A stretch of 64,000 bases of DNA from the NCBI RefSeq assembly GCF_009931435.1, contig NZ_CP043414.1. One strand, 5' to 3'. The notes under the pieces were generated by a model. That model saw only the letters and a program-made list of their open reading frames with translations. It was not told the DNA's origin and searched no databases. A program made the position numbers and the translations under genes. Source of the DNA: Escherichia coli. Its GTDB lineage: Bacteria > Pseudomonadota > Gammaproteobacteria > Enterobacterales > Enterobacteriaceae. The first letter of the stretch is position 1. Every line of letters starts with the position of its first letter. Shown here one piece after another: positions 20,369 through 20,621 of this stretch.

Positions 20369-20424
20369 AAGACGAAGGCCCCGACCGATATTTCTATCAA
20401 CCGAGGCCAACGAATGAACCTAGC
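20369..20424 (-). ncRNA. sokB: sokB antisense RNA of the hokB/mokB type I toxin-antitoxin locus (approximate coordinates)
   Basis: Placed from the conserved hok/sok architecture (antisense overlapping the mok start); boundaries not supported by clear promoter or terminator signals. Confidence 0.35.
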
Positions 20425-20581
20425 AATTCAGATGTTAGCCTCTTACCCGCCATCCGGCAAGGAGAAAGGCTATGAAGCACAACCCTCTGGTGGTGTGTCT
20501 GCTCATTATCTGTATTACGATTCTGACATTCACACTCCTGACCCGACAAACGCTCTACGAACTGCGGTTCCGGGACGGTGA
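20414..20581 (+). CDS. mokB: MokB, overlapping reading frame that couples hokB translation
   Basis: 55-codon frame MNLAIQMLASYPPSGKEKGYEAQPSGG... overlapping hokB in a different frame. Confidence 0.6.
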   Translation: MNLAIQMLASYPPSGKEKGYEAQPSGGVSAHYLYYDSDIHTPDPTNALRTAVPGR

Positions 20582-20621
20582 TAAGGAGGTGGCGGCGCTC
20601 ATGGCCTGCACGTCCAGGTAA
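20472..20621 (+). CDS. hokB: Type I toxin HokB (small membrane peptide)
   Basis: Manual translation MKHNPLVVCLLIICITILTFTLLTRQTLYELRFRDGDKEVAALMACTSR (49 aa); not in ORF track. Confidence 0.9.
   Translation: MKHNPLVVCLLIICITILTFTLLTRQTLYELRFRDGDKEVAALMACTSR

Follow-up and report, generated by a model that had tools for sequence, protein, structure and literature searches.

The chromosomal hokB/mokB/sokB locus of a non-K-12 Escherichia coli strain: evidence for an intact type I toxin-antitoxin unit

Introduction

The interval between trg and ydcA in E. coli assembly GCF_009931435.1 (contig NZ_CP043414.1) holds two overlapping small plus-strand ORFs, one of 49 codons and a second in the +1 frame relative to it, and raises the question of whether a complete type I toxin-antitoxin system, antisense RNA included, resides here or only the remains of one. 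A preliminary description of the 64,000-nucleotide stretch that we analyzed (the window) had named positions 20369-20621 as hokB/mokB/sokB, with both frames read by translation and the antisense RNA placed by analogy. The hokB/mokB/sokB locus is already known and well studied, hokB/sokB being a model for persister formation and bacterial A-to-I mRNA editing, and its occurrence here is ordinary. Our analysis makes it almost certain that this non-K-12 E. coli strain carries here the chromosomal hokB/mokB/sokB type I toxin-antitoxin locus in intact form, and what this copy adds is the correct annotation of three small features missed by ORF tracks.

Results

HokB toxin gene and the overlapping MokB frame

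The genes and translation signals of the region, with the flanking genes, are as follows.

18433-20073, minus strand: trg, flanking gene
20403-20406, plus strand: mokB Shine-Dalgarno sequence GAGG, 7 nt 5' of the mokB ATG (20414-20416)
20414-20581, plus strand: mokB leader ORF, 55 codons, 19 of them ahead of the hokB ATG
20459-20464, plus strand: hokB Shine-Dalgarno sequence AAGGAG, read from the sequence, 7 nt 5' of the ATG at 20472
20472-20621, plus strand: hokB toxin gene, 49 aa, MKHNPLVVCLLIICITILTFTLLTRQTLYELRFRDGDKEVAALMACTSR
20693-20866, minus strand: ydcA, flanking gene
21037-21100, plus strand: rydC, flanking gene (Rfam)

The window aligns without gaps, in reversed orientation, to K-12 MG1655 1491850-1492300, with 97.5% identity over 511 bp. 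The K-12 genes hokB, mokB and sokB (b4428, b1420, and b4429; NC_000913.3 1491922-1492175) occupy the same chromosomal position, from trg to ydcA, in the order trg, hokB, ydcA, rydC, cybB. This position and the near-identity to K-12 identify the gene as the orthologue of hokB rather than of hokA, hokC, hokD, hokE or a plasmid hok. Only four bases differ from MG1655 within 20369-20621, three of them synonymous changes in hokB and none in sokB, and the regulatory elements described below are identical in the two strains, namely tac, ucb, dcb, fbi, the two Shine-Dalgarno sequences, and the UACG site of editing.

The 49-aa Hok-family toxin of the preliminary description is borne out in full: the encoded protein is 100% identical to K-12 HokB and matches both the Pfam family PF01848 HOK_GEF (E 1.1e-23; 83 bits, with the cut-off at 22) and the NCBIfam Hok family toxin model NF007279 (100.8 bits against a cut-off of 73). 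Hok/Gef membrane toxins are small proteins (about 50 aa) in which a hydrophobic helix at the N terminus precedes a conserved C-terminal part, and these matches place HokB among them. The protein carries Cys9, Cys14, and Cys46, the last of which is required for the pore-forming HokB dimer (PMC11951105). The alignment with K-12 that had been proposed as a check leaves the hokB frame intact and sokB unchanged.

The overlapping mokB frame had likewise been read correctly. It has its own Shine-Dalgarno sequence, a GAGG motif that it shares with R1 mok (PMC9841398), and reads through the hokB start region. MokB is 96% identical to its K-12 counterpart, with two substitutions (I7M and H34Y), and the frame is open at 55 codons in six of seven full-length Escherichia copies. 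Of the five further copies compared, four have a MokB protein that is less conserved than HokB, with 82-84% identity for MokB versus 86-94% for HokB in the four non-K-12 copies. Separately, a protein record (P0057) describes a 68-aa in-frame MokB-HokB fusion (MNLAIQILASYPPSGKEKGYEAQPSGGVLLIICITIL...) on record for 345 contigs, which is indicative of a common deletion allele joining both frames.

SokB antisense RNA

The antisense partner lies opposite the start of mokB, with the following features.

20368-20424, minus strand: sokB antisense RNA gene, 57 nt, 5' end at 20424, by homology to K-12 sokB (b4429)
20377-20408, minus strand: SokB terminator hairpin of 14 bp followed by the U-rich tail UUCGUCUUU, from the terminator scan and the fold
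20432-20460, minus strand: presumed sokB promoter, with -35 TTGCCG (20460-20455), N17 and -10 TAACAT (20437-20432), read from the sequence

K-12 sokB (1492119-1492175) maps to 20424 down to 20368 on the minus strand with 57 of 57 bases identical, which gives independent sequence support to a gene that had been placed by analogy. The 57-nt RNA folds at -22.2 kcal/mol (z -3.7) into a hairpin with a 12-nt single-stranded 5' tail, and it is complementary to the mokB Shine-Dalgarno sequence and the mokB AUG. A terminator scan of 800 bases around the locus returned two sites, of which only the SokB hairpin is within the locus itself. The promoter-like site sits 7 nt 5' of the annotated sokB start, its -35 hexamer overlaps the hokB Shine-Dalgarno sequence on the opposite strand, and it aligns position for position with TTGCGC-N17-TATCCT in the hok/sok locus of an IncFII plasmid. 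Both hexamers are kept across the Escherichia copies. In terms of sequence features, the presumed promoter, 5' tail and terminator hairpin of a cis-encoded antisense Sok gene are all found opposite the mok start.

Neither the sokB nor the hokB promoter was recovered by a consensus promoter scan around the locus, in which no site reached 9 of 12 matches (the sokB site has 8 of 12, under the threshold); the promoter assignments thus rest on positional homology and conservation. The only difference from K-12 in the sokB promoter is G20434, which makes the -10 hexamer TAACAT instead of TAAGAT. Among complete E. coli genomes, TAACAT is found in 967 and the K-12 form TAAGAT in 3,902, and TAACAT is the allele of all non-coli Escherichia sampled. 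On these allele counts, the difference is a common polymorphism. The hokB promoter also differs from K-12, at the three bases 20322-20324 between -10 and +1 (GCTCAC versus GCCTGC). In sigma-70 promoters, the bases between -10 and +1 can determine how transcription responds to ppGpp. Conceivably, the ancestral sokB -10 allele and the three changed hokB promoter bases might together shift the balance between hokB mRNA and SokB relative to K-12, an idea that we regard as unlikely; were it true, the frequency of HokB-dependent persisters in this lineage would differ from that of K-12.

Leader model, mRNA ends and alternative folds

The Rfam model RF01794, named 'sok', matches 20326-20477 on the plus strand over its full length (114 bits, E 1.7e-26, gathering score 59) and, taken with the Pfam E-value, this match excludes chance. 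The strand, however, is that of hok, as it also is for the RF01794 matches to a plasmid hok locus (L012, 232-403, plus strand) and to other Escherichia hokB loci. The consensus of the model consists of two helices, the tac/ucb stem and the Shine-Dalgarno/dcb stem, and judged from these it represents the leader of hok mRNA in the open conformation. The match consequently gives strong support to the type of locus and not the position or strand of Sok, and annotation pipelines that label it as a Sok RNA put the RNA on the wrong strand with the wrong extent.

The elements assigned to the hokB transcript are listed below.

20314-20319, plus strand: presumed hokB promoter -10 TAGGAT, 6 nt 5' of the presumed +1, G20326
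20326-20688, plus strand: putative full-length hokB mRNA, 5' end by homology, 3' end approximate
20326-20337, plus strand: tac element at the mRNA 5' end, GGGUGCCUGAGA, paired with fbi in the minimum-free-energy fold
20330-20353, plus strand: possible metastable 5' hairpin of the nascent transcript, GCCUGA...UCAGGC, with a role suggested by the R1 model (PMC9841398)
20376-20382, plus strand: ucb, anti-Shine-Dalgarno box AGGCCCC, invariant in 10 of 10 sequences
20438-20442, plus strand: dcb, GCCUC, paired with the mokB Shine-Dalgarno sequence in the truncated fold 20326-20655, a helix also present in the RF01794 consensus
20628-20648, plus strand: 3' UTR stem-loop, fold -19.5 kcal/mol, z -5.3
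20670-20682, plus strand: fbi, fold-back inhibitory element, UCUCAUGGCACCC, paired with tac

The functional unit, at about 20314-20688, exceeds the interval of the preliminary description on both sides. The ORFs and the antisense gene do lie within 20369-20621, except that this interval starts one base inside the annotated 3' end of sokB; the promoter and tac on one side, and the 3' UTR and fbi on the other, fall outside. The lesson for annotation is that this unit is larger than its ORFs.

The presumed +1 at 20326 coincides with position 1 of the RF01794 model, and the leader of plasmid hok has its 5' end at the aligned position. The TAGGAT hexamer is invariant in all seven full-length Escherichia copies and aligns with TATGAT in the hok promoter region of an IncFII plasmid; no good -35 hexamer was recognised 5' of it. 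Further upstream, a block GTGATTATTT (20274-20283, plus strand), about 43-52 nt 5' of the presumed +1, is kept in the seven full-length copies, and E. marmotae-type loci carry GAGATTATTA in its place. As for the other end, the tandemly repeated unit of other Escherichia ends at about 20685, and CCCCUUUU follows directly 3' of the fbi arm (20681-20690, plus strand). The terminator scan gives no canonical intrinsic terminator on the plus strand 3' of hokB, and a hairpin at 20700-20721, inside ydcA, is weak (z -1.6).

The fold of 20326-20690 has a free energy of -139.9 kcal/mol (z -4.7). In this minimum-free-energy fold, the 5' and 3' ends are joined by a 12-bp tac/fbi helix, i.e., the long-range pairing that locks full-length hok-type mRNA, and ucb pairs with the mokB Shine-Dalgarno region. 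When the RNA is truncated to 20326-20655, the predicted fold replaces tac/fbi and ucb/Shine-Dalgarno with tac/ucb and mok-Shine-Dalgarno/dcb, which are the helices of the RF01794 consensus as well. These two arrangements are the closed and open forms of the R1 model (PMC9841398). The segment 20326-20360, which holds the nascent 5' hairpin, folds locally at -13.9 kcal/mol (z -2.8). The stem-loop at 20628-20648 stands at the position of the last stem-loop of the truncated R1 hok mRNA (PMC9841398) and, by analogy, likely protects the 3' end of processed hokB mRNA.

Comparison with plasmid R1 hok/sok

Plasmid hok loci were retrieved with a Hok probe. The architecture of R1/IncFII hok/mok/sok, the paradigm worked out by experiment, is shared throughout the locus: the promoter -10, tac, ucb, the GAGG Shine-Dalgarno sequence of mok, the 19 mok codons before hok, dcb, a hok Shine-Dalgarno sequence that overlaps the Sok -35, a 3' stem-loop, and fbi (PMC9841398). 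The predicted closed and open conformations are also alike. Nevertheless, plasmid Hok and HokB are only 54% identical, Mok of R1 has 70 codons compared with 55 in MokB, and the hokB 3' UTR is about 40 nt shorter than that of plasmid hok, without a separate terminator hairpin after fbi. The settings differ too, hokB being chromosomal with a reported role in persistence, whereas R1 hok serves plasmid maintenance. HokB has Tyr29 where plasmid Hok has Cys at the aligned position, and TadA editing turns Tyr29 into Cys.

TadA editing site

The editing site lies within the hokB frame.

20556-20559, plus strand: TadA A-to-I editing motif UACG, edited A at 20557, Tyr29 to Cys

Position A20557 corresponds to the edited A1491986 of K-12 (PMC12214031), with the UACG motif as defined in PMC13170351. 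TadA substrates carry UACG within a stem-loop that looks like tRNA-Arg2's anticodon arm (PMC12214031; PMC13170351). The predicted local stem at the site is weak (3 bp, z -1.3). The TACG motif is kept in seven of ten copies, E. marmotae-type loci having TATG.

Escherichia relatives and covariation

We compared the locus with the hokB units of K-12, E. ruysiae (two in tandem), Escherichia sp. B1147 (three in tandem), and E. marmotae and related loci. The 12 pairs of the tac/fbi helix are 100% paired in the seven copies that have the 5' end. At one pair, 20329/20679, four copies have U-A and the three of B1147 have C-G, fbi GGCACCC having become GGCGCCC in B1147 alongside a change of tac from GGGUGCC to GGGCGCC; the change is compensatory, and it is probably a single event inherited by the three tandem copies. 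Over the whole predicted structure, 95% of the pairs hold, versus 36-43% when the partners are slid. Double changes occur at three pairs of the whole structure, one of them in tac/fbi, among sequences that are close relatives. Taken together, the alignment suggests covariation support for the hokB mRNA structure that is real but thin. A word-indexed protein search with HokB returned almost exclusively HokB variants of Escherichia and Shigella, so a deep, family-wide covariation analysis cannot be built from those matches. A tblastn search of plasmids with HokB gave five near-identical matches, four of them in chromosome-size records, the small number reflecting the shortness of the query, and no relative turned up when viral contigs were scanned with HokB.

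The relatives also show how the locus has been multiplied and altered. In E. ruysiae (L003, 1281-2285), the entire unit corresponding to 20268-20685 of the window, from promoter to fbi, occurs twice in tandem, one copy having a frameshifted mokB and an altered hokB Shine-Dalgarno sequence. In Escherichia sp. B1147 (L004, 785-2275), the hokB unit occurs three times in tandem between trg and ydcA. The most variable part of sokB among tandem copies is the first 8 nt of Sok, its 5' recognition tail (20417-20424 in the window). The E. marmotae-type loci (L006, L007, L008, and L009; about 1354-1755 in L006) are without the hokB promoter and the first ~29 nt of the mRNA, tac included. Besides the TATG form of the editing motif, these loci have a 3-bp deletion in hokB, a weaker hokB Shine-Dalgarno sequence (AAAGAG), and a shortened mokB, and they retain sokB and fbi. 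From its sequence, the E. marmotae-type locus looks like one in decay.

Population distribution in E. coli

The hokB unit was found in 5,410 of 5,426 complete E. coli genomes, with at least 80% of the unit present in 4,502, and the gene under the match is named hokB by RefSeq among the genomes listed. In 908 of the 5,410 matching genomes (about 17%), the unit is split, truncated or lost, and the locus is therefore dispensable. We looked at two types of non-intact genomes. In one (L010, 1105-2474), an IS150 insertion interrupts the hokB leader and the sokB hairpin near position 20399 of the window; in the other (L011, 1047-1602), which includes CFT073, a deletion has fused a truncated trg to a truncated hokB. 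The exact sequence of the unit in the window is rare (only 4-6 genomes at 99% identity or above), and the window has the intact form.

Alternative explanations

The locus could be an inert relic that has been conserved by descent and is unexpressed or without regulation in this strain. Most of the hok loci on the K-12 chromosome have been proposed to be such relics, and K-12 hokB itself is said to be 'probably inactivated by point mutation', a remark that Pedersen and Gerdes reportedly made in 1999 and to which we gave no weight. PMC12214031, citing Pedersen and Gerdes (1999), reports that IS elements or rearrangement have inactivated every chromosomal hok locus of K-12 except hokB. The weak promoter matches and the E. 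marmotae-type loci without promoter and tac point in the same direction, as do the 908 non-intact genomes. In the window, however, the ORFs and regulatory boxes are all intact and identical or nearly so to K-12, where deletion of hokB abolishes Obg-mediated persistence (PMC11951105) and knockdown of sokB is deleterious (bioRxiv 10.1101/2020.03.04.975888). Moreover, the HokB protein is unchanged although its gene has three synonymous changes, and a compensatory change maintains the tac/fbi pairing among the relatives. We therefore consider a relic improbable and prefer an intact hokB/mokB/sokB locus.

It is less probable still, to the point of being very unlikely, that no functional SokB is made, the minus-strand hairpin being a mere complement of the hokB leader structure and hokB being checked solely by the folding of its mRNA and by low transcription. 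In hokB mRNA itself, the hairpin at 20377-20408 forms the ucb/Shine-Dalgarno stem, so its conservation needs no Sok; the sokB promoter matches the consensus poorly, K-12 RefSeq labels sokB a 'putative' antitoxin, and the Rfam 'sok' match is to the strand of hok. On the other hand, RNA-seq detects SokB in K-12, with a three-fold rise in a pcnB mutant (PMC5389530), and knockdown of sokB has phenotypes there, both by CRISPRi, which gives a growth defect that is worse under nutrient limitation (bioRxiv 10.1101/2020.03.04.975888), and by dCas13a (PMC10783499). The conserved hexamers that align with the plasmid Sok promoter and the U-rich tail 3' of the hairpin on the minus strand also argue for a genuine antisense gene. 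The last alternative, to which we give next to no credence, is that the 76-codon minus-strand ORF at 20397-20627 is the real gene and the small plus-strand ORFs are incidental. This ORF, which the preliminary description took for the antisense of the toxin frames, is indeed present (76 aa, TTG start), and its frame is open in the window as it is in the majority of full-length Escherichia copies. Pfam gave no match for it, though, and its TTG start becomes TGG or AGG, which are non-start codons, in E. ruysiae and B1147. The protein encoded opposite to it matches a family at E 1e-23 and is annotated as hokB among the listed RefSeq genomes. We rejected the 76-codon ORF as a gene and regard it as a shadow of the conserved sense frames, to be left out of gene calls.

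A second small minus-strand frame, equivalent to yncP of K-12 (b4774), was found at 20599-20667, antisense to the 3' end of hokB. In the window, CTG replaces the ATG start of the K-12 gene (G at 20667), and two residues differ. With the start lost in the window and the frame shifted or altered in the second E. ruysiae copy and in B1147, yncP was rejected as a conserved gene.

Proposed mechanism

The working of the intact hokB/mokB/sokB locus can be proposed by analogy with plasmid R1 hok/sok and with K-12 experiments, from which the transcripts, processing, RNase III step, induction and toxicity described here are carried over; the present analysis itself shows sequence and predicted structure, namely the sequence identity, the ORFs, the hairpins, both alternative folds and one covariation. 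A weak promoter would transcribe hokB into a stable mRNA of about 360 nt; in K-12, Obg and (p)ppGpp reportedly induce this transcription (PMC6094483, PMC11951105, PMC5668327). In the full-length mRNA, tac would pair with fbi and ucb would hold the mokB Shine-Dalgarno sequence, as a result of which the mRNA would be neither translated nor bound by Sok. Slow 3' trimming to the stem-loop at 20628-20648 would strip fbi, and the leader would refold to tac/ucb and mok-Shine-Dalgarno/dcb. The refolded mRNA would permit translation of mokB, which is needed for the coupled translation of hokB, and would expose the SokB target. SokB could then pair with the processed mRNA and block translation of mokB and hence of hokB, the duplex being degraded by RNase III; for R1, the trimming of hok mRNA by exonucleases from its 3' end and the cleavage of the hok-Sok duplex by RNase III are both described (PMC9841398 and references therein). 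Whenever hokB mRNA exceeds SokB, through more hokB transcription or through less SokB, HokB would enter the inner membrane, where dimers formed through Cys46 would make pores, and the resulting depolarisation and leakage of ATP could lead to a dormant, antibiotic-tolerant cell. TadA editing at codon 29 (Tyr to Cys) may increase the toxicity. In the literature, HokB pores and persistence are described in PMC6094483 and PMC11951105, and the editing of hokB mRNA in PMC12214031 and PMC13170351.

Other features of the window

The consensus of sigma-28 (FliA) promoters is TAAAGTTT-N11-GCCGATAA. A promoter-like sequence of this type, TAAGTAAT-N11-GCCGATGA, was read by eye 5' of trg at 20113-20139 on the minus strand. 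The window also carries other small RNAs at Rfam gathering scores, namely RydC (21037-21100, plus strand), MicC (53635-53755, minus strand), FnrS (58567-58684, minus strand), and McaS (62062-62157, plus strand).
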